Notes under the pieces: generated by a model
Told to the model about the DNA's origin: nothing
Seen by the model: only the letters and a program-made list of their open reading frames with translations
Database searches by the model: none
Translations under genes and position numbers: made by a program
Assembly: GCA_965215015.1 (NCBI GenBank)
Contig: OZ244042.1
Coordinates: 2,137,557-2,201,556, forward strand
Source of the DNA: Candidatus Poribacteria bacterium
GTDB taxonomy: Bacteria > Poribacteria > WGA-4E > PCPOR2b
DNA length: 64,000 bases
Direction: 5' to 3'
Shown: positions 1,878-59,588 of the stretch, piece after piece
Numbering within the stretch: position 1 is the stretch's first letter
How the letters are laid out: every line of letters begins with the position of its first letter

Positions 1878-2055
1878 GGACTTACGCATTTCAGTAGGAA
1901 AACCGATTGGCGTTCCCTACGAACTCTTATGGAGTCTTTGTTGTAGTTACCCGATTCATCGGGCGTTAGGAAGGGGAGCCAGCGGCGATAAATCGCCGAG
2001 CTACAAGTCAAAGACTCTCGGAACGGAGGCTTCGAGCGTTCAACTGCGTAAGTCC
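1878..2055. repeat. MITE-like dispersed repeat with termini ggacttacgca...tgcgtaagtcc and internal cccgattcatcgggcg and gcgataaatcgccg hairpins
   Basis: Terminal inverted repeats are visible directly. Related copies lie at 14486-14680, 31247-31409 and 33646-33759, with longer relatives at 17692-18210, 18472-19045 and 63859-64000. Confidence 0.55.
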
Positions 2056-3175: not shown

Positions 3176-3573
3176 AGTAAACCCTTTCAATAGCGTCGGA
3201 GGAAAACAGGCACATTATTGGAATTGGTTATGAGTATACTGTCGTTACAAGTGCTCACCGTCTCACAAATTAATAAGTTGCCACTTAAAGCCCCAGGGGC
3301 GATATGTGTAGCATTGAGTTGATGTACAATAAATCACGAGACTCATATTAAAAGAAAGTGCAAAGCACGAACAGCCCCCGAGCTTTCGGCAAAAACTCGG
3401 GGGCTGTTGCACGATTTCTTAACATGAGCCAATCGGGAAAACCACTATTGGTAAAGTTTCAAAGGGGAACCAGAAGAATCGCGAAGAAATATCCGGCGTC
3501 TGGGTTTAACGGATTAAATTTGATTGCCGAAGCTCGTACTGACCGATGCACATTATCGCCGAAAGGAGACGAT

Positions 3574-4920
3574 ATGCACGAAACACTGGATACCATGACA
3601 GCGGCCCCAACGCAGGGGCTCCTTGTTGGGGTAAAATTGAAAGGCGAGTTGCAGACCGATGCAGAAAGTTCACTCGAAGAATTAAGACGGCTTGCAGAAA
3701 CGGCGGGGATGGACGTGCTTGCCGAAATCATACAGCCGAAAGAAACGCCCGATCCCGCCTATTTTATCGGACGAGGAAAGTTAGAGGAATTGGAGGCGAT
3801 AATCAGTGAACTCAAAGTGGAGGCGGTAATTTTTGATAACGACCTCACACCGGCACAAACTCGTAATTTGGAAAAAGGGCTTGATGTCGTCGTCATTGAT
3901 CGAACAAGCCTGATTCTACAGATTTTCGCGCAACGTGCACAGACCAAAGCTGCCAAATTACAGGTAGACCTTGCCCAACTGCAATATGCGTTGCCGCGTT
4001 TGACGCGAATGTGGACACACCTCTCTCGACTTGGCACAGGTGCAGGCGGCACAGCAGGGGTGGGGGTCGGGCGCGCTGGGGGTGTAGTCCGTGGGCCGGG
4101 CGAAACCCAACTTCAGATTGACCGACGGTTGATTCACTCACAAATTGCGCGTGTAAAAAAAGCACTCCAGAAAGTTGAAAAGCATCGGCGCGTACAGCGG
4201 AAACAACGTCAGAAAATGATTAATATCTCGCTGGTCGGTTACACCAATGCAGGAAAATCAACCCTCTTTAACGCTTTGGCGAGCGAGAATCGACCCGCTG
4301 AAGATAGGCTGTTTGCGACACTAGATCCAACAACCCGCTTACTCGATTTGCCGGATAACCAACATGTCTTGTTGAGTGATACAGTCGGTTTTCTCAAAAA
4401 GCTGCCACATCATCTAGTAGCTGCATTCAAGGCAACGTTAGAGGAGGTTGTAGAGGCGGACCTGCTGCTCCATGTCGTTGATGTATCCCATCCCGAAGCG
4501 GAGAGTCAGATTGATGCTGTTGATGAGGTGCTTAAAGAGTTGGGGGCCTTTGAACGACCAACGCTCATGCTGTTCAATAAGATTGATTTACTGGAGGAGG
4601 AAGAATACCTCCGGCTATTCCAGAGTAAATATCCCGATAGCCTTGCAATATCGGCGCAGAATGGCACAGGATTGGAAGCACTAAAAGGTCTACTCGCTGA
4701 ACGCTTCTCAACTCAGGACGTAGATGTGGCGCTTGTGCTCTCCTATCAAGACGGAAAGGCACTAGATTATCTGTATAAGCATGGTGAAGTGTTCGATACG
4801 GACTATCAAGGTCAGTCAATCCGAGTCAAAGCGAAGCTTCCACAACGCTATTTGAAGGCTTTGGACCGCCTCACAACCAATTCGACCGCTGTCATACTAG
4901 ATTCAAAGATTAATGCGTAA
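3574..4920 (+). CDS. hflX: GTPase HflX
   Basis: It has HflX N-terminal domain signatures and G-motifs: GYTNAGKSTLFN (G1) and DTVGF (G3). The start is placed at ATG 3574, which has an AGGAG box 8 nt upstream; the six-frame ORF begins earlier at 3358. Confidence 0.8.
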   Translation: MHETLDTMTAAPTQGLLVGVKLKGELQTDAESSLEELRRLAETAGMDVLAEIIQPKETPDPAYFIGRGKLEELEAIISELKVEAVIFDNDLTPAQTRNLEKGLDVVVIDRTSLILQIFAQRAQTKAAKLQVDLAQLQYALPRLTRMWTHLSRLGTGAGGTAGVGVGRAGGVVRGPGETQLQIDRRLIHSQIARVKKALQKVEKHRRVQRKQRQKMINISLVGYTNAGKSTLFNALASENRPAEDRLFATLDPTTRLLDLPDNQHVLLSDTVGFLKKLPHHLVAAFKATLEEVVEADLLLHVVDVSHPEAESQIDAVDEVLKELGAFERPTLMLFNKIDLLEEEEYLRLFQSKYPDSLAISAQNGTGLEALKGLLAERFSTQDVDVALVLSYQDGKALDYLYKHGEVFDTDYQGQSIRVKAKLPQRYLKALDRLTTNSTAVILDSKINA

Positions 4921-4973
4921 ATCGAATCCTCGATTCGCTCGGGGGACTTAACCACATATCCCTAATCAATTGG

Positions 4974-5633
4974 ATGGTATTAGGAATGCTGCGACATCTG
5001 TATGGTGAGGTCTATTACTGGACTGAACGCCACGGCAGCCCTGAAACAATTTATGATTGGAACAGCTACGCGATTCGTATAGATCGGGCAAACGTCTTGG
5101 CATTGGTTGATCCGCTACCTTTGACGGTTGGGGAGATTCGACAAATTGAGAGAATCAGGGTGCCAACCCACATCCTCTTGACCTGCAACTGGCATCTCAG
5201 AGAAGCCGAGATTTTCCGACAGCGATGGGACTGTAAAATTTACCTTAACACACTCGGATCGGCAGAGGTGGAAACGACGATAGACGGTACGTTTCAGGAT
5301 CGAGATCGACTGTGGGACGCTATCGAAGCGATTCATATTCCCCATGCTGGTTGGACAGAAGAGACAGCGTTTTTAGTGGAGCAGGCTAACGGACTTCTCA
5401 TCGTAGGAGATGCGGTGTGTGGCGGACGAGCAGATATTGGTGTGCCTGAAGGTGAGATCGGTATCTTTACCAATCAAATTGAGCATATTCCGGATCGTCA
5501 AAAAGCACGAAATTCGTTGGTGAATCTGATGGAATATCCCTTTGATGCCATCTGTTTTGCACATGGCTTTCCAATTCTGTATCAGGCGAAAGCGGCATTA
5601 CAGCGATTTATCGATACAAATACCTTGAAGTAG
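4974..5633 (+). CDS. Hypothetical protein, possibly a metallo-hydrolase-like fold
   Basis: 219-aa ORF in the expected intergenic position with no overlapping alternative. No family was recognised. Confidence 0.35.
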   Translation: MVLGMLRHLYGEVYYWTERHGSPETIYDWNSYAIRIDRANVLALVDPLPLTVGEIRQIERIRVPTHILLTCNWHLREAEIFRQRWDCKIYLNTLGSAEVETTIDGTFQDRDRLWDAIEAIHIPHAGWTEETAFLVEQANGLLIVGDAVCGGRADIGVPEGEIGIFTNQIEHIPDRQKARNSLVNLMEYPFDAICFAHGFPILYQAKAALQRFIDTNTLK

Positions 5634-10011: not shown

Positions 10012-11160
10012 TCATGCGCGCTTATCTCTCCAATGCGTCAACTGTTCTTCATCCAACTCGACACCCAACCCAGGACCTTCGGGGACGCGAGCGACTTGGG
10101 GGCCGAGAGCAAGGGGCTCCCGCAGCAGATCTGCTTCATGATAAAGCGGCCCAATAATGTCTGCCGGGTAGGTTTCGCTGTCAATGGTGGGCATCGCAGC
10201 TGCGACATGCAGCATCGCAGCACTCCCAATCCCCAATTCCAGATTACTCCCGATACTACCAACTGCGCCGGCGGCTTTTGCAACATGCACAATTTCGAGG
10301 GTAGCACTCAGTCCACCGTGTTTGCCGGGGTACACGCTGAAGACATCAGCGGCACGCGCATTAGCCAGCAGCCACGCATCTGCAAGTGTGAAAAGGCTTT
10401 CATCCGCCATGATTGGGATATACGTCGCTTCCCTGAGTTGCGCGAGCGAGTCCGGGTTATCGGGAGAGATGGGTTGTTCCGCGAAAAGCATATCGTAAGG
10501 CTCAAGCTTGGGGAGCATACGACGGGCAGTATCCAAGCTCCAACCACAATTGACATCAATGCCAATGGGAACTGCTTGCCCAGCAATCTCTCGCACAGCT
10601 TTAACGCGCTGCAAATCTGTCACCGGATCGAGACCGACCTTAACTTTCAGGCAGCGTACCCCCCAATTGAGGAATCGCTCCGCCAGACTGACCGCTTGAG
10701 GAACATCGAACGCACCGACAACCATCTTAATTGGGATTTCGTCGCGGACCCGCCCGCCGAGCAGCTGATAAACGGGAACCCCCACCGCTTTTCCAGCTAA
10801 ATCCCACAACGCCATTTCTACTGCCGCCTTTGTGAACGGGTTGAGCTTGATCTCTCTATCCATGACAGCTCGCAGCAAATTAATCTGGGTGGGGTCAGCA
10901 CCGACCAACGCAGGGGCAATCAGTTCCTCAATGGCAGCGACGCAGCCGCGACTGGTTTCACCGCTCCAGCGAGGTGCTACTGTTGCTTCGCCCAGACCGA
11001 CTAAGTCCGTATCGGTATGGATGCGAACGATGACATAAGGTGAGTCGATATGTTCGCCATGGGCGGTCTTCGTTGTCAACCCTGCCTTCAGGGGAACTCG
11101 GACAGGGATCGGTTCAATCTGTGTAATGTGCATGGCAAGCCTCTGTTTGCTTAGGGGCAC
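10012..11160 (-). CDS. Enolase-superfamily enzyme (MR/MLE family)
   Basis: AVEMALWDLAGKAVGVPVYQLLGG and the barrel metal-ligand regions (IDVNCGW, FAEQP) are present. Confidence 0.8.
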   Translation of the reverse strand: MPLSKQRLAMHITQIEPIPVRVPLKAGLTTKTAHGEHIDSPYVIVRIHTDTDLVGLGEATVAPRWSGETSRGCVAAIEELIAPALVGADPTQINLLRAVMDREIKLNPFTKAAVEMALWDLAGKAVGVPVYQLLGGRVRDEIPIKMVVGAFDVPQAVSLAERFLNWGVRCLKVKVGLDPVTDLQRVKAVREIAGQAVPIGIDVNCGWSLDTARRMLPKLEPYDMLFAEQPISPDNPDSLAQLREATYIPIMADESLFTLADAWLLANARAADVFSVYPGKHGGLSATLEIVHVAKAAGAVGSIGSNLELGIGSAAMLHVAAAMPTIDSETYPADIIGPLYHEADLLREPLALGPQVARVPEGPGLGVELDEEQLTHWRDKRA

Positions 11161-11320
11161 AGTCGTAACCTAAGTTGCTGCCTATTGTAATCAGTCAGGA
11201 TTCTTATCTCGATCCGATAGTTGGTAGGTTAGACTTCCGAGCCCGACCTCGTCCCAATCCGCGTAGGTCGGGCAAAATGCCGGACCTATGGGAATAATGG
11301 CAACTTATGTCCAGTCGAAA

Positions 11321-17365: not shown

Positions 17366-17691
17366 CTCTAATATACCTTACCTTTCATGACAAACCGACT
17401 GCTAAATAAGTGAGGAGGTGCTCGTAAAGTAGTAGGCCCGTTCCGTGTGTCGTAAACCCCACAACCGTTATGGCACATGGCTTGGCTAACACACAACTGC
17501 CATTAAAATTCTAACCATAACTTGAAGAACAAAGCACTGCCAACCCCGGGGGCATCTTGCCTCATCTACCGCCTGAGCTCCCTATCTGTATCCGTGCAAT
17601 CTGCTGCATCAGTTTAATCCGTGTCTCAGACAATAATTATGAGCATCCCTCATCTATATTTGACTCAGTTCTTTGTGTTCAGTATAATATA

Positions 17692-18210
17692 GGGCTTACG
17701 CAGTTGAACGTTCAAAGGAAACACCAGAAAAGGGCGCGCAATGTTTATGGTCGGTTGAGCCATAATTATAGCGCAAGAGTCATGGTATCCCCGGTGACTC
17801 ATCAAATACCAAGTGTATCACTCGACAGGGTTTGGTGAATTGAGCCGGGGGCTGTTGCACGACAGTGTTGGTATCTATACGACTCACGCCGCCCGATGAA
17901 TCGGCAACTTCAGTTTATTATCCGCCAGTAGTAGGCCCGCGGCGCGTGCTATCCCCCCCGTTTCTTGCCCCTCTGCTGGTGTGGGACCTAAGGGAGTAGC
18001 CCCGCCTCTCCCCACACTTCTTTTCCCCTCCGCTTGCGGGTGGGTTAGGGGGGGAGCCCTACCCCTGCTGGCGTGGGGACTAAGGGGGTGATACCCCAGC
18101 CGGTATTTAGCAGGAGGAAGGGGGGACAGCATACGCCGTATGCCGACTCCCTTAAAGACGCAAGTTGAATGGCGTTACGACAAAACTCAAGGGCGTAACT
18201 CCTAATAATA
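17692..18210. repeat. Composite dispersed element of about 520 bp (gggcttacgcagttgaacg...caagggcgtaactcctaa)
   Basis: It is homologous along most of its length to 18472-19045 and shares the cccgatgaatcgg core and the terminal motifs of the short MITE-like family. Confidence 0.5.
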
Positions 18211-18471
18211 ATTCAAGTTGCTACCTATAGCAAGAACAAATCAACCATTGCAAATTAGTATATCAGGAGATACTCTATATGTTTAAGTATCATTTCATCT
18301 CCTATTTGATGGGAATTTGCAAACAACGACAGCACTTCATTATACTCAACACTCATCAGTTTGTTGATATTTATCTTCGGTTATCAAAATGTCTCTGCCC
18401 AACAGTGGATCGCCCTATGCTATTTTTCAACAGAGCTGCCTCATCTGCCCAAATCCCGACAAGAAACTAGT

Positions 18472-19045
18472 TAGGATTACGCAGTTGAACGTTTAAACGA
18501 AACACCAAACACTACTGCGCTACTGTCCGGGTGGGTCGAGCCAGGATTATGGCGCAATGGTCCTGGTATCTTTCGGTGACTCATCAAATACTAGGTGTGT
18601 CACTCGACAGTGTTTGGTAAATTGAAAACACCAAGTATGTTGCGCGATAGAATATCAGACACTGTTATGCCCCATGATTGGCTCCATCCGCCCGGGAGAT
18701 TGTGCAACGGTGGCGGTTGTCCACTGTTGCATGACAGTGTTGGTATCTATACAACTTACGCCGCACAATGAATCGGACAACTCTAGTTCATCCGACAGTC
18801 GTATGCACGCTCCACGTCCCCTCCCCCTGCTAAATACCCGGTGGGTCGTCCCTCAGTTCCTAGCTCATTGAGCCTAGAGCGGTCTGATACCGTGTGAGTA
18901 TTCGGGACTGAGGGGGGTATCCTGAATACCCACACGGTTTCCCCTCTGCTTGCGGGGCGAAGGGACACCGTATGCCGACTCCCTTAAAGACGCGGGTTGA
19001 ATTGGGCGACTACAAACTCAAGTGCGTAACTCCTAACTTATAGCC
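18472..19045. repeat. Second copy of the composite element, about 570 bp
   Basis: It starts aggattacgcagttgaacg and ends caagtgcgtaactcctaac. It aligns with 17692-18210 by eye, for example ...gtgttggtatctataca/gac... and ...cgtatgccgactcccttaaagacgc... Confidence 0.5.
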
Positions 19046-33645: not shown

Positions 33646-33759
33646 ACTTCAGTATGGATTCTCTGCTGTAGTTGCCCGATTCATCGGGCGTTGTCAATGG
33701 TGTCGTTCAGCGATTTATCGCCGCTTGACACGGCTTTGAGGGTTGAACCGCGTAAGTCC
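33646..33759. repeat. MITE-like repeat copy in reverse orientation
   Basis: ggagttacgca...cgcgtaagtcc. Internally it is the reverse complement of the 31247-31409 copy. Confidence 0.5.
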
Positions 33760-33891
33760 TAAAGAAAGGGCAACGTACGAAGAGAAACCGTAGGGGCGCG
33801 GCCACCCCGACCACACTTGTCAAAAACCCGAATTCTATGGCACGATTTCTTAACATGGGCGCAAAATAAAACCAAAGGAAGCCAAGCAATA

Positions 33892-39593: not shown

Positions 39594-40022
39594 TTTTCAT
39601 CGAATACACGAAAATATCTTTCCTTCATTTTCTTAATTTCTGGGGCAATTCCACTCTCATAACTTAGATTGACAGATGCAAACTAAAACCGATACATTTG
39701 CCAATTCGTTAGAATTGTATCAATTGTTCTTGTTCTTATTGTGCCATATCTTCACAAAATTCGGCAAGAATTATCCGTTTGAAGCTCGATTGATAATTTT
39801 CAAAAAAAAACTAGGTTCTGTTGACATTCGATAAATTGAGCCGATCTCCGTGCTTATGAGCACCCCTCCTAGAACATTGCGCTATGGAATACCAGATACT
39901 GCTGAGCCACACGATTGGATCCATCCGCCCGGAACATTGCGTTATAGCGAAATTATATGAAAAAATCATTGAAAAACTATTGACAGATTATTAATAATCG
40001 TTTATGGTATTAACCCCTATCG

Positions 40023-46167: not shown

Positions 46168-48240
46168 TTGATGAAGGAATATCAGACGGAACAGATTCGG
46201 AATATCGGCATTATTGGGCATTCGGGAACAGGCAAGACTTCACTCATCGAAGCGATACTCTATAATGGGGGCGCAATCGAGCGAATGGGACAAGTTGATA
46301 ATGGGAGTTCAGTTTCAGATTATGCTCCAGATGAGATTGAACGCAAAATGACCATTAACTGTTCTGTGTGTGTCGCTGAGTGGAAAGGGCACAAGTTTAA
46401 CATTATTGATACGCCCGGTGCCGAGGATTTCTATGGAGATCTCGAGAGCGTACTGCGGGTAGTAGATGCCGTTATTGTAGTGATTGATGCAACAACCGGT
46501 GTTGAAGGGGGGACGGAGAAAGTATGGGAAGCGGCTGATAGATATGGACTCCCACGGATAATCTTTATCAACAAAATGGATAAAGAGAATGCCAGTTTTG
46601 AAAATGCGCTCGCGAGCGTTGATGAGATTCTTGAAGCCCAAACAACTGCGACACAAGTGCCAATTGGTAAAGAAACTGACTTTAAAGGCGTCATCGATCT
46701 CATCCAGATGGGAGCGTTCACAGAACCGCAGGATAATAGACCTTCAGCAAAATCAGATGTTCCTTCCGAACTTGAAGCGCAGGTGGAAGAGATGCGGGAG
46801 CAGCTTGTTGAGGTTGCAGCAGAAAGCGACGATGAGTTGATTGAAAAGTTCTTTGAAGGTGAACTCACCGACGAGGAAATTGGTACTGGACTTCGTACGG
46901 GATTATGTGCCAATCAGTTCGTACCCGTACTCTGTGGTGATGCCCTGCGAAATATTGGCGTTCAACCCCTGATGGACATAGTCACCAACTGCTGCCCATC
47001 TCCGGTTGATGCCAGACCGATTACAGCAATTGACGGCGAAACAACCTATGAGGCCTCCCCGGACTCGCCATTGGCGGCGTTGGTGTTTAAGACGTTGGCA
47101 GATCCGTTCGCTGGACGACTGAGCTTCTTCCGGGTTTATTCTGGCGTCTTAAATAGCGATTCTCAGGTTTACAACGCGACGAAAGGTGAGAATGAACGAA
47201 TCGGCAAGCTCGCATTCATGAATGGGAAAACCGCTACTAACGTGCTCCAAGTATCCGCAGGCGATATCGGAGTTGTTTCTAAACTGACGCTTGCACAAAC
47301 AGACGACACATTTTGCGACGTAGGAAGTTCGTTCCAACTTCCCGGCTGCGAATTCCCTAAGCCTGTTATCTCGTTCGCCATTAAGCCTGCACGAGAAGGG
47401 GATGATGAGAAACTGAGTTCGACCCTCTCCCGGATGATGGAAGAAGACCCATCATTCCAGATCGAACGGAATAGCACAACGAAACAGTTGCTGGTCTCCG
47501 GGCTTGGCGAGATACATCTCACCGTCATACGCAATCGAATGCGCGACAAGTTTGGCATCGAAACTGAAGTCGAAATACCGAAGGTCGCCTACCAGGAAAC
47601 GATTCGTGGTAGGGCGAACGGTATTCAAGCGAGGTATAAACGTCAGTCTGGCGGGCGCGGGCAATTCGGGGAGGTCTGGATAAACCTGTCCCCACTCCAA
47701 CGAGGTAGCGGATTTGAATTTGTCAACAAGATTGTGGGGGGCTCGATTCCGCGTAATTATATCCCCGCGGTTGAGAAAGGCATCCGTGAGTCGATGGCTC
47801 AAGGTCTGATTGCCGGGTATCCCTTCGTTGACGCTCAAGTGGAGCTCTACGACGGTAAGCATCACCCTGTTGATTCCTCTGATATGGCTTTTCAGATTGC
47901 TGGTTCTTTTGCGTTTCGAGACGCAGCAAACCAATCCAATCCAGTGCTGCTTGAGCCAATCATGAACGTCACAATCTCTGTTCCAGAACAGTTCATGGGG
48001 GATATTATCGGCGACCTCAATAGCAAACGGGGCCGAATCATGGGGGTTGAACAGGCGGGCAAACGGCAGGTCATTCAAGCGACCGTCCCGTTGGCAGAAA
48101 TGTTCCGGTATTCGATAGACCTTAAATCAATTACGAGTGCGCGGGGCAGCTTCACGATGGAGTTTTCAAATTACGAGGAGATGCCGGATGAACTAGCCCA
48201 AAAGGTAATTGCTGAAGCAAAATCAGAGGCGGAAGAGTAA
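46168..48240 (+). CDS. Elongation factor G paralog (EF-G2-like)
   Basis: GIIGHSGTGKTSL (G1), DTPG (G3) and NKMD (G4) are present, and the domain order is that of full-length EF-G. It is not in a str-operon context. Confidence 0.85.
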   Translation: MMKEYQTEQIRNIGIIGHSGTGKTSLIEAILYNGGAIERMGQVDNGSSVSDYAPDEIERKMTINCSVCVAEWKGHKFNIIDTPGAEDFYGDLESVLRVVDAVIVVIDATTGVEGGTEKVWEAADRYGLPRIIFINKMDKENASFENALASVDEILEAQTTATQVPIGKETDFKGVIDLIQMGAFTEPQDNRPSAKSDVPSELEAQVEEMREQLVEVAAESDDELIEKFFEGELTDEEIGTGLRTGLCANQFVPVLCGDALRNIGVQPLMDIVTNCCPSPVDARPITAIDGETTYEASPDSPLAALVFKTLADPFAGRLSFFRVYSGVLNSDSQVYNATKGENERIGKLAFMNGKTATNVLQVSAGDIGVVSKLTLAQTDDTFCDVGSSFQLPGCEFPKPVISFAIKPAREGDDEKLSSTLSRMMEEDPSFQIERNSTTKQLLVSGLGEIHLTVIRNRMRDKFGIETEVEIPKVAYQETIRGRANGIQARYKRQSGGRGQFGEVWINLSPLQRGSGFEFVNKIVGGSIPRNYIPAVEKGIRESMAQGLIAGYPFVDAQVELYDGKHHPVDSSDMAFQIAGSFAFRDAANQSNPVLLEPIMNVTISVPEQFMGDIIGDLNSKRGRIMGVEQAGKRQVIQATVPLAEMFRYSIDLKSITSARGSFTMEFSNYEEMPDELAQKVIAEAKSEAEE

Positions 48241-48330: not shown

Positions 48331-49038
48331 ATGGGCAGATATGCCTACTATTACAATCTTGCTAAAACTCATCTGGATCAAGGAGATTCTGGTCGTGCCC
48401 TCATAAACTTTACCTTAGCACAGCGACAGAATCCCAATCGTGTCGAGGCCTATTACGCTCGTGCTACGGTTCACCAGCTGAGAGGCAATCATGATCGCGC
48501 CAATGCAGATTTGACCACGGCACAGAACCTCACGAGAATTTCCTTTGCTGAGTTTGATTTAACGAAGGCCAACGAATTTGTAGAGAGCGATGCCGGATTA
48601 AGCCTTATAGAAAACCAGGACGCGAACCCTAGTGATATTCTTATAAGGAAACTCGGCGAGATTGCCTTTGCTAAATTTCTATATGAGCATGATAAGGCAT
48701 TCTTGAATGATGCCAATCAACTTCTAACATGGGATGATGTTTATACATCGGACAGACTGAATCTCCAGACTTGCGACGGCCAAACTGTTGATGTTAAGGC
48801 ATCCAAATTCCAAAGCATAGTGGTTCCATATAATAATAAACCAAGGGATTATTACGTCGGAGTTGGAATTTCAACGGATAAGACAATAGGTACAGTGGAG
48901 GGTTTTATTCATAGAGATGGACTAAAGCCCTCTGAGTCTAACATTCCCGATCCATGTCTTCAAAGAAAATTTGAATCACTTAAATGTATCGAAGACTTGC
49001 TTGAAATGATGCCTGAGGCAGAAAACGGTGCGAGCTAG
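48331..49038 (+). CDS. TPR-like N-terminus fused to the same roughly 170-aa module found at the RpoB C-terminus
   Basis: Residues from about 68 to the end align at roughly 80% identity with RpoB residues 1536-1706 (RISF.E.DL.KANEF...GEIAFAKFL...[16 protein letters not shown]...MPEAENGA). Confidence 0.55.
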   Translation: MGRYAYYYNLAKTHLDQGDSGRALINFTLAQRQNPNRVEAYYARATVHQLRGNHDRANADLTTAQNLTRISFAEFDLTKANEFVESDAGLSLIENQDANPSDILIRKLGEIAFAKFLYEHDKAFLNDANQLLTWDDVYTSDRLNLQTCDGQTVDVKASKFQSIVVPYNNKPRDYYVGVGISTDKTIGTVEGFIHRDGLKPSESNIPDPCLQRKFESLKCIEDLLEMMPEAENGAS

Positions 49039-49180
49039 GTCCCACGGGAGAATAATAAACAAATGTGCCCCCTATCCCCAATACCTGCCCTTGTGATGGT
49101 GGGTATGCACCCCATTAGAAACGGATAAGATCTCTCTCGTTCTTACCGAAAAAACTTTAGGTCTGTTCACGCATTACCTA

Positions 49181-52100
49181 TCACGTTCGGATCTCACTCC
49201 CAAACCTTGCCGAAACAACCTTTGACACGCCCGCCTGCTCCATCGTCACACCGTACATGACATCGGCAGTTTCCATCGTCCGTTTATTGTGGGTAATAAT
49301 AATAAACTGTGTCTGCTGGGCGTATTTCCGAATGAGGTTGGTGAAGCGGAGCACGTTCGCTTCGTCAAGCGCAGCATCAACTTCATCTAGAACACAGAAG
49401 GGGCTCGGCTTAATCTTAAACACGGCGAAGAGCAGGGCAATGGCGACAAGGGACCGCTCACCGCCGGAGAGTTGCGTGATACTCTGTGGCCGCTTCCCCG
49501 GCGGACAGGCGATGATATCAATTCCCGATTCTAACACGTCAGATGCTTCTGTCAAACGTAACTCCGTTTCCCCACCCCCAAAAAGTTCCTCAAAGACCTC
49601 TTGAAAGTTGGCGCGTATCTGCTCAAACGCACCGAGGAACGCTTCACGTGAGGTCTGGTTAATCTTTTGAATGGCTTGGTTGACCGATTCGAGCGACTTC
49701 TCGAGGTCTTGGCGCTGGGTGACGAGGAAATCTTCACGCTGCTTGTGCTCCTTATACTCCTCAATCGCCACAAGATTAACAGAGCCCATCCCTTCAATCT
49801 CGGCTTTCAGCGTATCAATCTGTCCCATCAACTCCAGGTCGTCAACCGGATTATCCTCGACTTCAATCTGATCAATTGTGATTTGGTACTTATCGAGGAT
49901 TCGGGCGGAGATTGCCTTCAATTGCATCTGCAACTGGGTCGTCGTGACCTCTAGGTGATGCCGTAGGCGATTATGCTTATCAAATTCCCTTCTGGCTTTG
50001 CGCATCAGCTTCTGCGCTTCTGCAATCTGTTTGATTAAACCTGTATGCTCCTCCTCTAGCTGTCTCACATTTTCCGCCGCCTCAAATTTTTCCTGCTCTA
50101 TCTGGAGAAATTTGCGTTGCGCTGCGTCAATTTGTGAAGAGAGCTCTTGGCGGGTTTGGTCATCTGAATCGATAACCCCCTGATGCTCGGCGATACTGTC
50201 GTGAATCTGTGCCTGATTTTTTTGAAGATTTAGGAGCTCAGAGCTCAAGCTCTGCAATTTTTCCCGTTTCCCTGCTAAAGCAATTTCAAGTTCTTGGCAG
50301 GAACCGATGACTTCATCCCGTTTATTCTTTTCGCTCTGAATCTGCTCCGACAACCGCTTGATGCGTCGTGCTAATGTGCGGCGCGCCTTGGCTGCGTCCT
50401 CCAATTCAGACTGCAGGGCGTCCTGATCGGCTTTTGCTTTTTCCGTTTCCTGATGCAGACCTACCTCTTCCTTTTCTACATCATTCAATTGTTCTTCAAG
50501 TTGGCTAATTTGCCGTTGTCCCTGTTCCAAAACTTTTGACAAACTCGCATGCTCAATTCGGTGCGTTTGCTCCTGTGTAATGAGGGTTTGCCGGGTCTGT
50601 TGGAGTTCCACCAACTTGCCAGCAAGTTTTTTGCTTCTGCCATCCTTTGCATTGAGCTGGCTTGTCAGTTGGTTAATGCGTTCCTGTAGATCTTCTAGCT
50701 CCCTTGAGCGGCTCAGGAGTCCACTAGTTGAACCAGTGTTATGCCCACCCGTAACTGCGCCAGAAGTATTGATTAATTCTCCCTCCAGTGTGACGAGGCG
50801 CGCACGGTGACGGAAACGCCGTGTCAGGTTTATTGCTGTGTCAAGGTCTTCGACTACAACTGTATTTCCTAGCAGTTGCTGAACTGCAACCTCATATTTT
50901 GAGTCGTAGTCTAGGAGTTCAGCTGCCAGACCGATTACACCAACCTCCTCTAGCAGACCATCGCCGTGGAACGAGCGAGTCCGCAGAATATCCAAGGGCA
51001 AGAAGGTCACTCGACCGGCTTTCGTCCGTTTGAGAAACTCAATACCGGACTGAGCGTCTTCAGCGGTTTCTGTAACGATGTTTTGAATAGCACTCCCCAA
51101 TGCTACCTCGATGGCTAACTCGTAGTCTGATTCGGTTCGGATGAGCTCGGCGATGACGCCACAAATCCCGCCAAAGCGTTCTGGCTCTATTTCGCGGACT
51201 TTAAGAATCGCGCGTACACCTGTGTAGTAACCTTCATGGACGGCTTGCAAATCCCGTAATGACTTAAACCGTGAAACGCTGGTACCGAGTGAATCCTGCA
51301 TCCCACGCAGTTCGGATTCTAGCTTGCGGAGCTCCGCTTGGTGGCGTTGGATTTTTTCTTCAGCTTTCTGCCGGGCCATCTCAAGGCGAAGCAGGTCGGC
51401 GTTAAGCTGCTGTTCACGTTGGTGTGCCTTTGTATAATCCGATTTTTCTGCTTCTAGTTCAGTGTCTAAAGCGTTTGAGCGTTCCGTAATTCGATCCAGA
51501 TTAGCAGCTGAATACTCCAGTTTGTTGTTAAGGGACGCAAGCTGCGTTTCCAGTTGTGAGACTTGATGGGTCGTTTCAAGCAATTTTTCCTGTGTTGTTT
51601 CTACGGAACCTTCGGCTTCCGTCACCCGCCTATTGAGTTCGGTCAAAACTCGCCGCCGCGCGGTCAGTCGGCTTTCCTCTAACTGAAGTGAAACGTCAAC
51701 CTGTCTGTGTTCTTGCTCGCGGTCCTCCTTTTGCTCTTTAAGTTCTGATGACTGTCTCTCCAATGATTCGATTGCCTGAAGTGCCCGTTGGCGCTGCTGC
51801 TGAATATTTAGCTGACGTTCCTTGTAAAGTGCAATTTGCCGTTCCGTTTGTTCAATCTCACTCGCAAATTGGCTCACAACCCCTTGCCCATTACGAATTA
51901 AGTTATCTAACTCGGAGCGGCGGGCTGTCGCATCCTCAATCTGCTGCTCTGTGGAATCGATCTGCTCATTGGCTGCTGTCACCGCAAGCATCAATTCATC
52001 TAAGCTGAGTTGGGTTTGAGTCAATTCCTTGGCAAACCGCCCATGCTCCCGACGGTTGAGGTCCAGTTCAAGGTTTTTCAGTTGACCGTGGAGTTGTTGA

Positions 52101-52744
52101 TAACGTTCGGCTTGTTCGGCTTGCCGCCTGAGCGATTCAGTTTCACGCTGCAATTCGTGGATAACATCATTAATCCGCACAAGGTTCCGCTCAGTTTCTT
52201 CTAGCTTTTTAAGGGCCGCTTTTTTGCGGTGCTTATATTTGGTGATGCCCGCAACTTCGTCGAACAGGAAGCGGCGCTCTTCGGGACGGGTATTGAGAAT
52301 GAGATCAATCTTACTCTGCTCCATGACAGAGTACGCATCGACGCCGATCCCTGTGTCCATAAAGAGCTCTGTAATATCTCGTAGCAAACACGGGGTATCG
52401 TTGATGAAATATGTGCTTTCACCGCTACGTGTCAGTTGACGGCAAACTGCAATCTCCGGGGATTCAAACGCAAGTTGTCCCTCAATGTTGGTGAAATGAA
52501 GGGAAGCCTGTGCCCGTTGTGCTGGTTTAAAGTTCGATCCACCGTTAAAAAGGAGATCTTGCATATTGGCACAACGCAGGGCGCGGGGGCTCTGTTGGCC
52601 CAAGACCCAACGAATTGCGTCTGACACATTGCTCTTACCACAGCCATTTGGTCCCACAATAGTTGTAACTCCAGGCTCTAGTATTAACTCCACATCTTCG
52701 GCGAAGCTCTTGAAACCACTGATTTTAATTTTATTGATATGCAA
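49181..52744 (-). CDS. smc: Chromosome segregation protein SMC
   Basis: The N-terminal Walker A (GPNGCGKSN), long coiled coils, a hinge, and the C-terminal LSGGERSL signature and Walker B (CVLDEVDAALD) are all present. Confidence 0.9.
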   Translation of the reverse strand: MHINKIKISGFKSFAEDVELILEPGVTTIVGPNGCGKSNVSDAIRWVLGQQSPRALRCANMQDLLFNGGSNFKPAQRAQASLHFTNIEGQLAFESPEIAVCRQLTRSGESTYFINDTPCLLRDITELFMDTGIGVDAYSVMEQSKIDLILNTRPEERRFLFDEVAGITKYKHRKKAALKKLEETERNLVRINDVIHELQRETESLRRQAEQAERYQQLHGQLKNLELDLNRREHGRFAKELTQTQLSLDELMLAVTAANEQIDSTEQQIEDATARRSELDNLIRNGQGVVSQFASEIEQTERQIALYKERQLNIQQQRQRALQAIESLERQSSELKEQKEDREQEHRQVDVSLQLEESRLTARRRVLTELNRRVTEAEGSVETTQEKLLETTHQVSQLETQLASLNNKLEYSAANLDRITERSNALDTELEAEKSDYTKAHQREQQLNADLLRLEMARQKAEEKIQRHQAELRKLESELRGMQDSLGTSVSRFKSLRDLQAVHEGYYTGVRAILKVREIEPERFGGICGVIAELIRTESDYELAIEVALGSAIQNIVTETAEDAQSGIEFLKRTKAGRVTFLPLDILRTRSFHGDGLLEEVGVIGLAAELLDYDSKYEVAVQQLLGNTVVVEDLDTAINLTRRFRHRARLVTLEGELINTSGAVTGGHNTGSTSGLLSRSRELEDLQERINQLTSQLNAKDGRSKKLAGKLVELQQTRQTLITQEQTHRIEHASLSKVLEQGQRQISQLEEQLNDVEKEEVGLHQETEKAKADQDALQSELEDAAKARRTLARRIKRLSEQIQSEKNKRDEVIGSCQELEIALAGKREKLQSLSSELLNLQKNQAQIHDSIAEHQGVIDSDDQTRQELSSQIDAAQRKFLQIEQEKFEAAENVRQLEEEHTGLIKQIAEAQKLMRKARREFDKHNRLRHHLEVTTTQLQMQLKAISARILDKYQITIDQIEVEDNPVDDLELMGQIDTLKAEIEGMGSVNLVAIEEYKEHKQREDFLVTQRQDLEKSLESVNQAIQKINQTSREAFLGAFEQIRANFQEVFEELFGGGETELRLTEASDVLESGIDIIACPPGKRPQSITQLSGGERSLVAIALLFAVFKIKPSPFCVLDEVDAALDEANVLRFTNLIRKYAQQTQFIIITHNKRTMETADVMYGVTMEQAGVSKVVSARFGSEIRT

Positions 52745-54275: not shown

Positions 54276-57200
54276 ATGCCCCATCCCGTCAAATATGGCA
54301 AGCGTGAAAGATTATCTTTTGCAAAAATTCCGGAGATTATGAATCTCCCCGATCTCATCGAGGTTCAAAAATCCTCCTACGACGAATTTCTTCAACAAAA
54401 TATCCCCCCAGAAAAGCGTAAAGATAAAGGCTTACAAGCCGTTTTCAACGAAATCTTTCCAATCCCCGATTTCAGCGAAACTTCCGAACTTCAGTTCGTT
54501 AGTTATTCACTCGGTGCCCCTAAGTACGACATTAACGAATGCCAATCCCGTGGGTTCAATTATGCCCTGCCGGTGAAGGTTCGTGTCCAATTGGTTCTCA
54601 GAGAAAAAGATCAGGACACCGGTGAAAATCAGCTGATTGATATCAAGGAAAATGAAGTCTATATGGGCGAAATCCCCTTGATGACGGAAAACGGTACTTT
54701 CATCATCAACGGCTCTGAACGGGTGATTGTCAGCCAGCTACAACGATCTCCCGGTGCAACGTTTGGGGAAGATACCCACACCAGTGGACAGACACTCAAC
54801 ACTGCGAAGATTATTCCGTATCGAGGGGCGTGGATTGAATTTGAGTGCGACATCAAAGATCTGATTTATGTCCGGCTCGATCGACGAAAAAAAATGCTCG
54901 TAACTGTTCTGCTCCGGGCACTGGGTTGGGAAACCGATGAAACCATCCTCCATCTGTATGCCAAGACAGAGTGTGTTCAGCTCGATGATTCCCTGATTGG
55001 TCGGGTGACGGCTGCTCCTGTTGAATATTCTGTCCCTGAAGATATCTTGCTTGAAGCAAATACAAACACAGAGCGTGTCAATCTAGCTGACGCTCCAATT
55101 GGTCGGTTGATAGCTACTCCTGTCGAATACAAGCACCCTGATACTGGAAAAGAGGTCTTGCTTGAAGCAAATACGAAATTGACAGCAGAGCAGATTTCGG
55201 ATTTGCTTCAAGCAGATATCAGCGAAGTTGTAGTTGAAGCAAATACAAACACAGAGCGTGTCAATCTAGCTGACGCTCCAATTGGTCGGTTGATAGCTAC
55301 TCCTGTCGAATACAAACATCCTGATACTGGAAAAGAGGTCTTGCTTGAAGCAAATACGAAATTGACAGCAGAGCAGATTTCGGATTTGCTTCAAGCAGAT
55401 ATCAGCGAAGTTGAAGTTATTCCTGTCGAATACAAATTACTCGAAGCAAATGTGGAGTTGACAGAAGAGGCAATAGACGATTTGCTTGAGGCAGGTATCA
55501 GCGAAGTTGAAGTTTTAGACGCAGATGATGCAGAAGAAATCCGTTTTCTGCGAAATACGCTCAATCGTGATCTCCAATCGGAGTATAAACTGCCGTTAAT
55601 TTTTAAAGTGCCATCAGACCTCCAAAGTGATTTGACAGATAATGCACCGGTGTCAGAGACATGGCGTCAACAGTTTAAAGACAGTGGCACCTCTCTGTCC
55701 TCTACCGCGATCATGCAGGTAAAAACAGCAGATCGCCGTTGGCGTGTATTAAACAAGAATAATAGAGAGAACTTTACCATTGAGAAAATAGGGGATACCC
55801 TCAACGTCTATCGGGGAAGTATCCAAGACTTGGCGGTGGTTGAAATCTTTCGTAAGCTGCAACCGGGCGACCCGCCTACAATCGAGAGCGCGCACAACCG
55901 ATTTGAAAAGCTATTTTTCGATTCAGTGCGCTACGATCTCGCAAAGGTAGGGCGGTATAAGCTTAATGAAAAGCTTGGCAACCTTTCCCTGTATCGGAAC
56001 GAGGACGAAGTAGTAGATGAAACGATTCGTGTCCTGCGTGCGGCGGACATCGCCGCGGTTCTCCAATACCTGATACAGGTGCAGAATGGAAACGGAGAGA
56101 TGGACGATATCGATCACCTCGGTAATCGTCGAGTTCGCGCTGTCGGAGAACTGTTGCAGAACCAGGTGCGGATGGGGATGCTGCGAGTTACCCGGGCGAC
56201 GCGAGAGCGGTTGACAGTTCAAGACTTGGAAAGTGTAACCCCTGCCGACTTGATTAATCCTAAACCCTTGACCGCTGCGATCAAAGATTTCTTCGGATCG
56301 AGTCAACTTTCCCAATTCATGCAGCAAGCCAATCCGCTAGACGAGTTAACCCATAAACGCCGCTTGAGTGCATTGGGCCCCGGCGGACTGCATCGGGAAC
56401 GTGCAACCTTTGAGGTACGGGATGTCCATCGTACTCACTACGGACGAGTCTGCCCGATTGAGACACCTGAAGGCCCTTCGGTGGGGTTAATTGTTTCCTT
56501 AAGTACCTACGCGCGGGTCAATGCCTACGGCTTTATGGAAACACCTTATCGCAAGGTGTCTGAGGGCAAAGCAATCAATCGGATCGATTATTTGTCCGCC
56601 GATAAAGAAGATACGTTCACCATTGCACAGGCACATGCTGTCCTCGATGAGGACGGAACGATGGAAGGCGACCTGATGGTTACACGGCAAAAGGACGATT
56701 TTCCCCGGAAGTTAGCACCAGAAATCGATTACATTGATGTCTCCCCGAAACAAATCGTTGGTGTTTCTGCCGCGCTCATTCCCTTCCTTGAGCATAACGA
56801 TGCGAACCGTGCATTGATGGGGAGTAACATGCAGAGACAAGCTGTACCGCTCATCCGGCCAGAAGCTCCGTTGATTGGGACTGGTATGGAACATAAAGCT
56901 GCTCGCGATTCTGGGGCAGTTGTACTGGCAAAGCGGGATGGCATTGCAGAAAGCGTCTCTGCATCTGAAATCATTATCCGCACGGATGATGCCTTCCGGA
57001 TTGCTCATGGAGAGCAGTCGTTCAGCGAAATGGGCTACGATGTTTATCGCTTGACCACCTTCAAGCGATCCAACAGTGGGACCAGCCTCCACCAACGCCC
57101 ATGTATAAATGTCGGAGAACAGATAAAAGCCGGTCAAGTGATTGCCGATGGCACCTCAACAGAGAATGGAGAGCTGGCCCTCGGCAGCAATATCCTAATC

Positions 57201-59396
57201 GCATTCATGTCTTGGGAAGGATATAATTATGAGGATGCTATCCTCCTCAACGAGTCACTCATCGCTGACGATACTTACACCTCTATTCACATCGAAGAGT
57301 TTGAGGTAGAAGCGCGTGATACGAAGATGGGATCCGAAGAGATTACTCGAGATATTCCAAACGTTTCTGAGGAAGCTTTGGCGCAGTTAGATGAGGAGGG
57401 GATTATTCGCATCGGTTCAATTGTCCGTCCGGGAAGCATTCTTGTGGGCAAGGTGACCCCGAAGGGAGAGAGTGACCTCGGCCCCGAAGAAAAACTGCTG
57501 CGTGCAATCTTTGGTGAGAAAGTCGGCGAAGTGCGCGACGCTTCCAAGTATGTCAAGCCCGGCACCGAGGGGGTTGTTGTTGATGTCAAGGTCTTCTCTC
57601 GGAAAGAGCGGGACGGGGACCGTCAAACGGAATTACGGGAGATCGCGAAAAAGAAAGAGGTGGAGAAGGAATGGGAGGCGAAATGTGGATTAATTAACCA
57701 ACGCAAGGACGACGAGATCCGCAACATACTGCTCGGTCAAAAACTCGCTAGCAGTGTTTCTAACGACACAGAACTCATTGCTAGGCGGGGAAAGATTGTA
57801 ACAGAAGAGTTGCTGGAAACGGGCGTTCCGTTGGAACAATTTCATGTTAGGGATGCTGAGGCAATGGAGCTCATCCAACGCATTCAACAGTTGGCGCAGG
57901 GGCGTATTGATGCCCTGACGGAAGAAAAGAAAGCACAAATTGAGAAAATCGAGAAGGGCGACGAGTTGAAGCCGGGGCTTCTCAAACTGGTGAAAGTTTA
58001 TGTAGCGATCCGTCGAAAGATCTCTGTCGGCGATAAAATGTCCGGGAGACACGGCAATAAGGGAGTCGTTTCAAAGATTCTCCCACAAGAGGATATGCCC
58101 TATCTGGAAGACGGTACGCCAATCCAAATCATCATGAATCCGTTGGGGGTTCCGGGGCGCATGAATGCGGGACAGATTCTGGAAACGCATTTGGGGAGGG
58201 CGGCAAAGGAACTTGGATTATATATTACCACGCCGGTCTTTGATGGGGCGGAGGACCCGGAAATTCGTAAGCTCTTACGAGAGGCAGGGCTGCCCGAACA
58301 CGGAAAAGCGAAGTTGTATGATGGTCGAACCGGGGAACCCTTTGCCCAAGAAGTGACTGTCGGATATACTTACATTCTCAAGCTCAATCACTTGGTAGAT
58401 AATAAAATCCACGCCCGCAGCACAGGACCCTATTCGTTGGTGACTCAGCAACCGCTCGGTGGCAAGGCACAGCAAGGTGGCCAACGTCTCGGTGAAATGG
58501 AGGTGTGGGCATTGGAAGCATATGGGGCTGCCTACACCCTTCAAGAATTACTCACAATTAAATCCGATGATGTCATTGGAAGGAGCAAAATCTACGAAGC
58601 GATTGTCAAAGGAGAAAATGCCCCCGCGCCCGGCACTCCAGAGTCATTTAACGTTCTCGTGAAGGAATTACAAAGCCTTTGTCTAGATGTAGACCTAGAA
58701 CAGACATCTGATGCCCCAGATACTTTTGATGCCCCAGATACTTTTGATCTTACGCCTGAGAAACAGAACCTGCAGACATCTAATGCCCCAGATACTTTTG
58801 ACCTTGCCCCTGAGAAACAGAACCTGCAGACATCTGATGCCCCAGATACTTTTGATCTTGCCCCTGAGAAACAGGACCCCACGAGAATTTCCTTTACTGA
58901 GATTGATTTAAAGAAGGCCAACGAATTTGCAGAGAGCGATGCCAGATCAAACCTTATAGAAAACGAGAACGCGAACCGTGAGTATATTCGTATAGGGAAA
59001 CTCGGTGAGATTGCCTTTGCTAAATTTCTAGATAAGCATGATAAGGCATTCTTGAATGACGCCAATCAACTTCTAACATGGGATGATGTTTATACATTGG
59101 ACAGACTGAATCTCCAGACTTGCGACGGTCAAACCGTTGATGTTAAGGCATCCACATACCAAAGCATATTGGTTCCATGTAATAATGAATCCAAAGATTA
59201 TTACGTCGGGGTTAAAATTTCACTGGATAGGAATAGGAAAATAGGTACAGTGAAGGGTTTTATTGATAGAGATGGACTAAAGCCATTTACTCACCCTGAC
59301 ATTGATAAGCCATGTCTTCAAGGAGAATTTGGATCACTTGAATGTATCGAAGCCTTGCTTGAAATGATGCCTGAGGCAGAAAACGGCGCGAACTAG
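54276..59396 (+). CDS. rpoB: DNA-directed RNA polymerase subunit beta carrying lineage-specific BBM2 repeats, a C-terminal acidic repeat linker and an extra C-terminal module
   Basis: Canonical RpoB blocks are present: the rifampicin region, [17 protein letters not shown], and [28 protein letters not shown]. The canonical end ...[21 protein letters not shown] is followed in frame by about 230 additional residues. Confidence 0.9.
55054..55420 (+). repeat. Perfect 183-bp tandem duplication inside rpoB, encoding two BBM2-like units
   Basis: 55054-55236 and 55237-55419 are nearly identical. Each encodes [59 protein letters not shown]. Confidence 0.7.
58704..58880 (+). repeat. Three 54-bp in-frame repeats at the 3' end of rpoB encoding an acidic 18-aa linker unit ([18 protein letters not shown])
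   Basis: Read directly from the sequence. Confidence 0.7.
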
Positions 59397-59476
59397 GGCC
59401 CACGAGAAAATAATAAACAAATATGCCCCCTATCCCCAATACTTGCCCTTGTGATGGTGGGTATGCACCCCATTAG
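58881..59476 (+). other. Low-GC duplicated cassette: C-terminal module of RpoB plus about 80 bp of 3' flank, paralogous to 48533-49120
   Basis: Nucleotide identity is about 88% across roughly 590 bp and includes the post-stop sequence aataataaacaaat.tgccccctatccccaatac.tgcccttgtgatggtgggtatgcaccccattaga. Confidence 0.65.
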
Positions 59477-59588
59477 ATTGGGAGTCGGAACATGATGTAT
59501 GAAGTGTGGAAGAGGAGAAGTCCGAAAAAATAGAAGTGCTTCTCTTCTAATCTTCTAATCTTCTAATCGTTAATAAGGGAGAATAGCC

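Follow-up and report, generated by a model that had tools for sequence, protein, structure and literature searches.

The stretch of DNA analysed here, referred to as the window, comprises 64,000 nucleotides of a Candidatus Poribacteria genome (assembly GCA_965215015.1, contig OZ244042.1, positions 2,137,557 to 2,201,556), and holds two copies of a segment of about 600 bp that encodes a domain with a predicted restriction-endonuclease fold. Copy A (48522-49119, + strand) forms the 3' part of a gene for a TPR protein, and copy B (58871-59477, + strand) lies at the end of rpoB, the gene for the beta subunit of RNA polymerase (RNAP). When essential, highly conserved machines gain a domain, this can as a rule only be inferred much later. 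At this locus the donor locus, the empty site, both junctions, the stranded stop codon and the growth of a linker are all visible in one 64-kb window and a few relatives, and the fusion of the restriction-endonuclease-fold domain to the C-terminus of RNAP beta is recent and precisely reconstructable.

The source gene (48331-49038, + strand) encodes a protein of 235 aa. Its first 67 residues are TPR repeats (48331-48531; Pfam TPR_2 and TPR_17 at residues 5-57), outside which Pfam gives no match, and the following 168 residues (48532-49035) constitute the restriction-endonuclease-fold domain. Upstream lies fusA (46168-48240, + strand), the gene for elongation factor G, identified by Pfam labels on orthologous loci, and downstream lies the convergent smc (49181-52744, - strand). 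The gene order RNR, TauE, fusA, TPR-domain gene, smc, queG, rpoB, rpoC is found in the loci of relatives labelled L001, L009, L011 and L013-L015, that is, in every relative recovered, which makes copy A the one that is resident and syntenic. Of the strains sampled, that of L014 (NCBI GCA_964348125.1) is the closest, its flanks being 98-100% identical to the window. Copy A, as delimited by alignments, is 598 bp long; it starts with 10 nt from between the two domains, runs through the part that codes for the domain and its stop codon, and takes in 81 nt of the 3' flank (49039-49119). This flank is native to locus A, as it follows the orthologous gene in L014 and L013, and about 27 of its 81 nt are all that L001, L009 and L011 share. 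L014 (~4600-4980) and L013 (~10860-11240) also have some 380 bp extra in the stretch from the locus A flank to the 3' end of smc, a difference (compared at window positions 49170-49180) which represents either an insertion in L014 and L013 or a deletion in the window.

Copy B is 607 bp long, with the domain coding region at 58881-59393, the stop codon at 59394-59396 and the flank at 59397-59477, and differs from copy A by two in-frame indels of +6 and +3 nt. The first-pass annotation had put the identity of the two loci at about 88%, had it continue some 80 bp past the stop codons, and had described the cassette as AT-rich and its duplication as something other than ordinary divergence of paralogues; on all of these points it proves correct. 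The coding parts are 87.3% identical in a codon alignment, and mean column identity is 89% when window positions 48480-49180 are aligned with 58830-59540; a repeat search of the window returns blocks of 300 nt (91%), 182 nt (90%) and 52 nt (92%). Identity reaches beyond the coding part for exactly 81 nt past both stop codons (76/81 identical, 94%, with 5 mismatches) and then ends abruptly. A 53-nt core of the flank occurs only twice in the window, with 0 occurrences expected by chance, and the left end of copy A, ACAGAACCT, is found again within the linker repeats of rpoB. No third copy of the domain was found in the window by tblastn. Since the non-coding flank is shared, the ends are sharp and the synonymous divergence (dS) between A and B is only ~0.13, the similarity of the pair stems from a copy made at the DNA level and not from old paralogues conserved as proteins.

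No other coding stretch of the window is as AT-rich as the cassette. Its GC content is 0.405 in A and 0.402 in B, and the GC content of third codon positions (GC3) is 0.36 and 0.37 respectively, compared with means of 0.51 +/- 0.03 and 0.53 +/- 0.06 over the 35 long open reading frames (ORFs) of the window. None of 627 in-frame genic windows of 504 nt has a GC content as low, and about 1% have a GC3 as low. The 81-nt flanks have an ordinary GC content (0.47-0.51).

In rpoB (54276-59396, + strand; 1706 codons) the ORF now ends with a native acidic tail, a repeat linker, copy B and the cassette's own stop codon. Copy B supplies the last 171 codons, and the domain sits after the universal ...LCLDVDLE end of the protein. 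The rpoB products of the relatives are 1488 aa (L001) and 1373 aa (L009) long, both lacking the cassette and sharing the tail architecture of L014, in which the protein ends with ...DLAPENWESEHDL and is followed by rpoC. The insertion point lies in the non-conserved tail, 8 codons before the native stop, between ...CCTGAGAA on the left and TTGGGAG... on the right. The corresponding site in L014 is empty (GAGAA/TTGGGAG, with no insert); the tail DNA of its rpoB reads ...GCCCCTGAGAA/TTGGGAGTCGGAACATGATCTATGA (PENWESEHDL, then stop), the slash marking the point at which 607 bp are inserted in the window. Directly behind the insert the native 3' end of rpoB resumes as an untranslated relic, TTGGGAGTCGGAACATGATGTATGA (59478-59502, + strand), which encodes ..WESEHDV and the old stop codon (59500-59502), and which matches the last rpoB codons in L014, L001 and L009. 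The occupied-site junctions (GAGAA/ACAG...TTAGA/TTGGG) have microhomology of at most 1-3 nt, there is no target-site duplication at either junction, and there are no terminal inverted repeats at the ends of the unit. The gene immediately downstream is rpoC (59589-63833, + strand), and the spacer that separates it from rpoB, 192 nt in the window vs 77 nt in L014, now holds the flank and the old rpoB tail. An 8-bp tandem repeat, TCTTCTAA, present 3.2 times at 59543-59568 just upstream of the rpoC ribosome-binding site, has one unit fewer in L014.

The linker (58709-58878, + strand) consists of in-frame tandem repeats, of 18 bp present 2.2 times (58709-58748) and of 54 bp present 2.8 times (58729-58878), as delimited by Tandem Repeats Finder. 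The 54-bp unit is made up of 44 nt of native rpoB tail and the first 10 nt of the insert (ACAGAACCTG), and because it includes insert sequence, the linker repeats must have expanded, in frame, after the insertion. The ~60-70 linker residues are Asp/Pro-rich and, with a predicted local distance difference test score (pLDDT) of 33-53, are predicted to be disordered. Repeat expansion is also seen elsewhere in the gene, as positions 55051-55514 hold an in-frame tandem duplication of 183 bp (98% identical) together with older, diverged copies of a module of ~61 aa. This module, with ~4 copies in the window, ~3 in L001 and one in L009, is a copy-number-variable, lineage-specific insertion in RNAP beta.

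An AlphaFold model of the domain, built with 61 homologues, has a pLDDT of 94.6 and a predicted template modelling score of 0.90, and the predicted fold contains the alpha-beta-beta-beta-alpha-beta core of the PD-(D/E)XK superfamily. The top 8 Foldseek matches are all restriction endonucleases, at weak scores (E 0.03-0.2). Copy B is modelled with the same fold (block-mean pLDDT 80-97) behind its low-confidence linker. No significant match to the domain of A or B was obtained in Pfam, NCBIfam or PADLOC, and sequence searches of the PDB returned chance or TPR matches only, with no solved structure or named enzyme. Members of the family are mostly standalone proteins of ~175 aa, and a scan of GTDB genomes placed the nearest named carriers of the domain in metagenome-assembled genomes of Candidatus Poribacteria. 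One distant homologue is fused to a UvrD-like helicase.

Four clear sequence homologues, with 33-40% identity (in L004, L017, L018 and L019), begin ~31-37 nt inside the end of a gene for a PF01555 N6/N4 methyltransferase. A restriction gene overlapping a modification gene is the classic arrangement of type II restriction-modification (R-M) systems, and we infer that the family goes back to a small type II restriction endonuclease with an N6/N4 methyltransferase as its partner. The methylase-linked relatives of three of these loci also have other defence or mobile-element genes nearby, namely MmeI/Eco57I-like enzymes in L017 (7450-10537) and L019 (1-1249), and a GmrSD fragment, T5orf172 and DDE transposases in L018 (470-3534). 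Within the 64-kb window no methyltransferase gene adjoins either copy, the neighbours being fusA and smc at locus A and the rpoB core and rpoC at locus B.

Residues that are invariant or nearly so in the family are K40-L-G-E43, D69, Q79, T80, D87-x-K89 and Y107-Y-x-G110, of which A and B both keep E43, D87 and K89. Of the 61 members, 39 have Asp, 18 Asn and 4 Arg at position 77. This position, ten residues upstream of D87, opens the neighbouring, preceding strand in the model, and its motif spacing and predicted strand position, rather than measured geometry, mark it as the presumed catalytic Asp. All four methylase-linked members have Asp77; Asn77 is found in A, B, all TPR-fused alleles and the standalone proteins of L003 and L020, and Arg in the standalone protein of L016, and at none of these Asn or Arg loci is there a neighbouring methyltransferase. 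On this assignment the PD-(D/E)XK catalytic motif is incomplete in A and B, where Asn occupies position 77. Given the lack of a methyltransferase partner and the Asn where methylase-linked members have Asp, the A/B domain is probably an orphan derived from a restriction enzyme that has lost cleavage, as judged by motif position and its correlation with context, and probably serves as a non-cleaving module for binding nucleic acid or protein. The family is split between methylase-linked members, which keep Asp77, and orphans that lost it and are fused to TPR or RNAP, which suggests that a nuclease fold was exapted as a non-cleaving module.

Compared with type II PD-(D/E)XK enzymes that work with an N6/N4 methyltransferase, A and B are alike in predicted fold, E43, D87-x-K89 and the YYVG strand, and unlike them in having no methyltransferase partner, in the Asn at the presumed PD aspartate and in being domains of larger proteins. 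The DUF1822 (PF08852) profile matches 21 of the 61 members at E <= 0.01, over the sheet core; the best score, 26.1 bits (cut-off 25), belongs to P0016 from L003 and covers profile positions 84-138, which correspond to the beta-sheet core. Copy A scores 12.3 bits (E 0.089), below the gathering threshold, and copy B has no match. Kaur et al. (2021, PMC8195603) describe DUF1822 as a TPR protein whose gene neighbours those of ECF sigma factors. It differs from the window protein in its length of ~370 aa, of which only ~55 positions match, and in its domain order and genomic context.

The divergence of the two copies bears on what has happened to the domain since the insertion. By the Nei-Gojobori method dS between A and B is 0.136 and the nonsynonymous divergence (dN) 0.143, so that their ratio (omega) is ~1.05. 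Polarised with outgroups, the B lineage has accumulated 36 nonsynonymous and 5 synonymous changes and two in-frame indels, and the A lineage 15 nonsynonymous and 7 synonymous changes. The amino-acid changes in B are depleted at positions with >=80% conservation in 47 distant members (6/30 vs 11.8 expected, P = 0.013), and the core of B (codons 39-91, with E43 and D87-x-K89) has 1 nonsynonymous and 2 synonymous changes. Gene conversion was considered as a cause of the core identity and can be discarded, as synonymous divergence in the core equals that in the rest of the cassette. Every indel acquired after the insertion has a length divisible by 3 (+6, +3, 18 and 54 nt). Together, this suggests that the rpoB-borne domain is translated and kept as a folded unit while its surface changes fast.

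The history of copy B extends further back than that of the closest strains. Shared-derived site patterns number 12 for A with L014, 3 for A with B and 4 for B with L014, which places the split of B from the A lineage before the divergence of the window and L014 strains, whose host genes differ by a dS of only 0.03-0.05. The present A allele was therefore not the donor of B. Among 210 retrieved proteins there is no closer donor allele for B, the best being P0210 and P0003, at 77%. We infer either an old polymorphism of occupied and empty rpoB sites or a donor DNA from another strain.

We consider it likely that copy B arose through a one-off event of illegitimate recombination which copied the 3' part of the TPR-restriction-endonuclease-like gene onto rpoB, and that the domain is non-cleaving and still under selection. 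The sequences show the DNA event itself: 598 bp, comprising the 3' two-thirds of the gene and the 81-nt flank, were copied into the dispensable acidic tail of rpoB, where a promoter-less, 5'-truncated fragment landed in frame by chance in a single recombination event, the non-coding flank being carried along. The cassette's stop codon now ends beta, which is predicted to have 1706 aa with a ~60-residue linker and a C-terminal domain of 171 aa, and the linker was subsequently lengthened by in-frame tandem duplication of the 54-bp, junction-spanning unit. The locus is a clean natural example of a core RNAP subunit gaining a terminal domain via a single illegitimate recombination. As B still appears to be under selection as a folded domain, the tethered domain probably does something, and it would probably act near the C-terminus of beta and the N-terminus of beta', for example by contacting DNA or a partner of the TPR protein. 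In RNAP the beta C-terminus adjoins the beta' N-terminus, and for this reason a disordered linker of ~60 residues would let the domain reach nearby DNA, RNA and factors.

Several observations weigh against this account. The evidence for constraint on B is modest, consisting of the P value of 0.013 and the in-frame indels, and the omega of the B lineage (~1.9) is not significantly different from neutral (P = 0.11). B is older than the split of the strains and the site is nonetheless empty in L014, the nearest of them, so that an extra assumption is needed. Other Asp residues, e.g. D69, are conserved in the family, and the assignment of D77 as catalytic rests on spacing and predicted strands. 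The fusion is also a singleton, with no rpoB-cassette fusion or B-type cassette found among 5.8 billion proteins, in a profile search of 1.84 billion representatives, in the GTDB genome scan or in two metagenome scans. Finally, the exact 1706-aa product is absent from a collection of 15 billion proteins in which the product of the neighbouring gene is present; it may be that the public record flags the rpoB gene or leaves it without annotation.

Much of this could also be explained if the same DNA event had left copy B as a functionless passenger, a neutrally drifting C-terminal extension after the conserved core of beta. The A-B dN/dS close to one, the 36:5 ratio of changes in B, the absence of the insert from the closest strain and its singleton status in all databases searched are what such a passenger would lead one to see. 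We nevertheless regard it as rather unlikely, because the changes avoid both the family-conserved positions and the E43...D87-x-K89 core, at least 4 indel events have all preserved the frame, no stop codon has appeared after ~41 substitutions, the linker has expanded post-insertion, and the fold is still predicted with high confidence.

A more ambitious version of the selected, non-cleaving domain is that an inactivated restriction endonuclease has been taken up into a core subunit of bacterial RNAP and serves there, on its tether, to read sequence or to bind a partner, with the free TPR version acting as a transcription-associated factor. We hold this to be doubtful, and the following consequences are correspondingly tentative. 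A non-cleaving binder could, speculatively, give the core enzyme a sequence- or partner-specific contact, and if the tethered domain is functional this would suggest that the family works with the transcription machinery. The fusion would then be a Rosetta-stone link between the family, including the DUF1822 proteins near ECF sigma genes, and RNA polymerase, and the fast, surface-biased change of B would reflect adaptation to a new role or an arms race. By analogy, it would also be a bacterial counterpart, at an early stage, of the PD-(D/E)XK domain of Rpb5. The N-terminal domain of Rpb5 is a non-catalytic PD-(D/E)XK fold in eukaryotic RNA polymerase (Steczkiewicz et al., 2012, PMC3424549), and other members of the superfamily that have lost their activity are known to bind nucleic acids or to have a structural role. 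Unlike the window domain, Rpb5 is a separate subunit, eukaryotic, ancient and fixed, and the likeness is one of analogy only.

The accretion of extra domains by RNAP beta and beta' offers another comparison. Known additions to beta are internal, BEAN-type insertions, and a 2024 survey reports no nuclease-fold domain among them but does note natural beta-beta' fusions (PMC11515920). The window addition resembles this accretion (BEAN, HABAS, SBHM and the beta-beta' fusions) in being an extra, non-universal domain in one lineage, and the copy-number-variable module inside this rpoB is a further point of likeness. It is not an internal insertion of the BEAN or SBHM type, being terminal and of a different, restriction-endonuclease fold, and it also differs in that its donor locus, empty site and junctions are visible.

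The first-pass annotation had taken the cassette for a horizontally acquired or mobile module with its own downstream signal. The first part of this stands in so far as the composition is foreign, the domain derives from an R-M system, alleles have been exchanged and the copy was made at the DNA level; the cassette does not behave as an autonomous mobile element. The evidence for exchange comes from locus A. Between the window and L001, dS is 0.157 in the cassette and 0.52-0.60 in the flanking fusA and smc, and between L001 and L011 it is 0.03-0.08 in host genes and 0.379 in the cassette, a conflict which implies that cassette alleles move between lineages. In L001 (9895-10640) and L011, the flanks are 98-100% identical, and between them lies a patchwork of diverged tracts that covers most of the domain as well as the TPR part and the intergenic region; between the window and L014 identity falls to 91-95% only in the 3' half of the TPR gene. 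An 18-aa indel (ENRGSRLIQTPDGDEISIRF) after the DVKAS strand also divides the allele classes of the gene. On the basis of these sequence comparisons the TPR-restriction-endonuclease-like gene is a hypervariable locus, the alleles of which move between lineages by recombination at a fixed fusA-smc site, and such exchange fits an R-M ancestry and the low GC content. The ends of the recombination tracts do not match the ends of the A/B unit, and the 600-bp unit bears no mark of a discrete element.

It is improbable, then, that the cassette is a self-propagating module, similar to a free-standing homing endonuclease, which targets fusA and rpoB and has a working 3' signal in the flank. Its low GC content, the conflict between its allele phylogeny and the host genes, the position of both copies next to highly conserved genes and the presence/absence polymorphism at the rpoB site would all suit such a module. 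However, beyond A and B no further or orphan copies were found within the window, copy A occupies a conserved syntenic site, and there are no terminal repeats, target duplication or recombinase. Considered alone, the cassette has no start codon or promoter, being the C-terminal part of a larger ORF at both loci, the presumed catalytic Asp is replaced by Asn, and the tracts that separate L001 from L011 end elsewhere. Nothing was found in IMG/VR or in phage and plasmid collections. A transposable element, whether a miniature inverted-repeat element or an insertion sequence, was rejected on similar grounds, there being no inverted repeats, target duplication or transposase-like ORF, and two copies only.

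As to homing endonucleases in particular, both empty and occupied rpoB sites and allele exchange at the fusA-smc site are seen, but the cassette is not a free-standing ORF, its presumed Asp is lost and the fusA-smc site is occupied in all relatives. Unlike PD-(D/E)XK homing endonucleases of the I-Ssp6803I type, the cassette has neither an intron or intein context nor sequence similarity to them, and its gene has a TPR N-terminus and is present at its site in every relative sampled. The orphan toxin cassettes of CdiA-CT and Rhs proteins are similar in being variable, AT-rich, C-terminal modules with a nuclease fold that are duplicated along with downstream DNA. They differ from the window cassette, which has no immunity ORF in its flank, no VENN or PxxxxDPxGL motif and no orphan arrays, and which is carried by a cytoplasmic TPR protein and by RNAP beta instead of by secreted proteins.

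The downstream signal attributed to the cassette could not be confirmed. The flank folds no better than shuffled sequences (z +0.10 and -0.20 for the two copies in sense, +1.71 and +0.47 in antisense), terminator and promoter scans turned up nothing, with no terminator-like site on the sense strand, and there is no Rfam match at E <= 1. Its divergence (5/81) is not significantly below synonymous divergence (P = 0.21), and it is not conserved in L001, L009 or L011. With no structure, terminator, known RNA family or conservation, a functional RNA or regulatory element in the flank was rejected, and the flank is best read as co-copied passenger DNA.

The anatomy of copy B, truncated at the 5' end inside the gene and extending 81 nt past the stop codon, would also fit a 3'-anchored cDNA, reverse-transcribed from the 3' portion of the mRNA of locus A, either as a 5'-truncated product or through retrohoming similar to that of a diversity-generating retroelement (DGR). 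This is highly improbable, as there is no terminator or other sign of a transcript end at 49119, the substitutions have no adenine bias, and the unit is far longer than DGR repeats; no reverse transcriptase was noticed near either locus, though no dedicated search was made. DGRs have as their hallmarks adenine-specific differences, repeats of ~100-150 bp and a nearby reverse transcriptase. The A-B differences fall at 18 A, 17 G, 17 C and 13 T positions over a unit of ~600 bp, and a DGR was accordingly rejected. An assembly artefact or chimera, in which a read from locus A was joined to the end of rpoB, would account for the fused product missing from the protein collection that holds its neighbour's and for the lack of an independent assembly with the fusion, but is very unlikely indeed, since B differs by at least 12% from A and every known allele, has private in-frame indels, and has both of its junctions at a single exact position in the rpoB tail, which continues behind it, and since the junction-spanning unit was later triplicated.

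Elsewhere in the window, two tandem paralogues (21872-22576 and 22664-23371, - strand) encode proteins of 234 and 235 aa with ~92% nucleotide identity, each with a hydrophobic, transmembrane-like N-terminal stretch and a charged, apparently coiled-coil-rich remainder. Short dispersed repeats of 40-100 nt, which belong to several families, are 63-91% identical and may be small repeat elements, are scattered through the window (1928-1998, 3390-3429, 17585-18776, 27932-27971, 28217-28291, 33653-33723, 33821-33860, 39868-39939 and 63857-63953).

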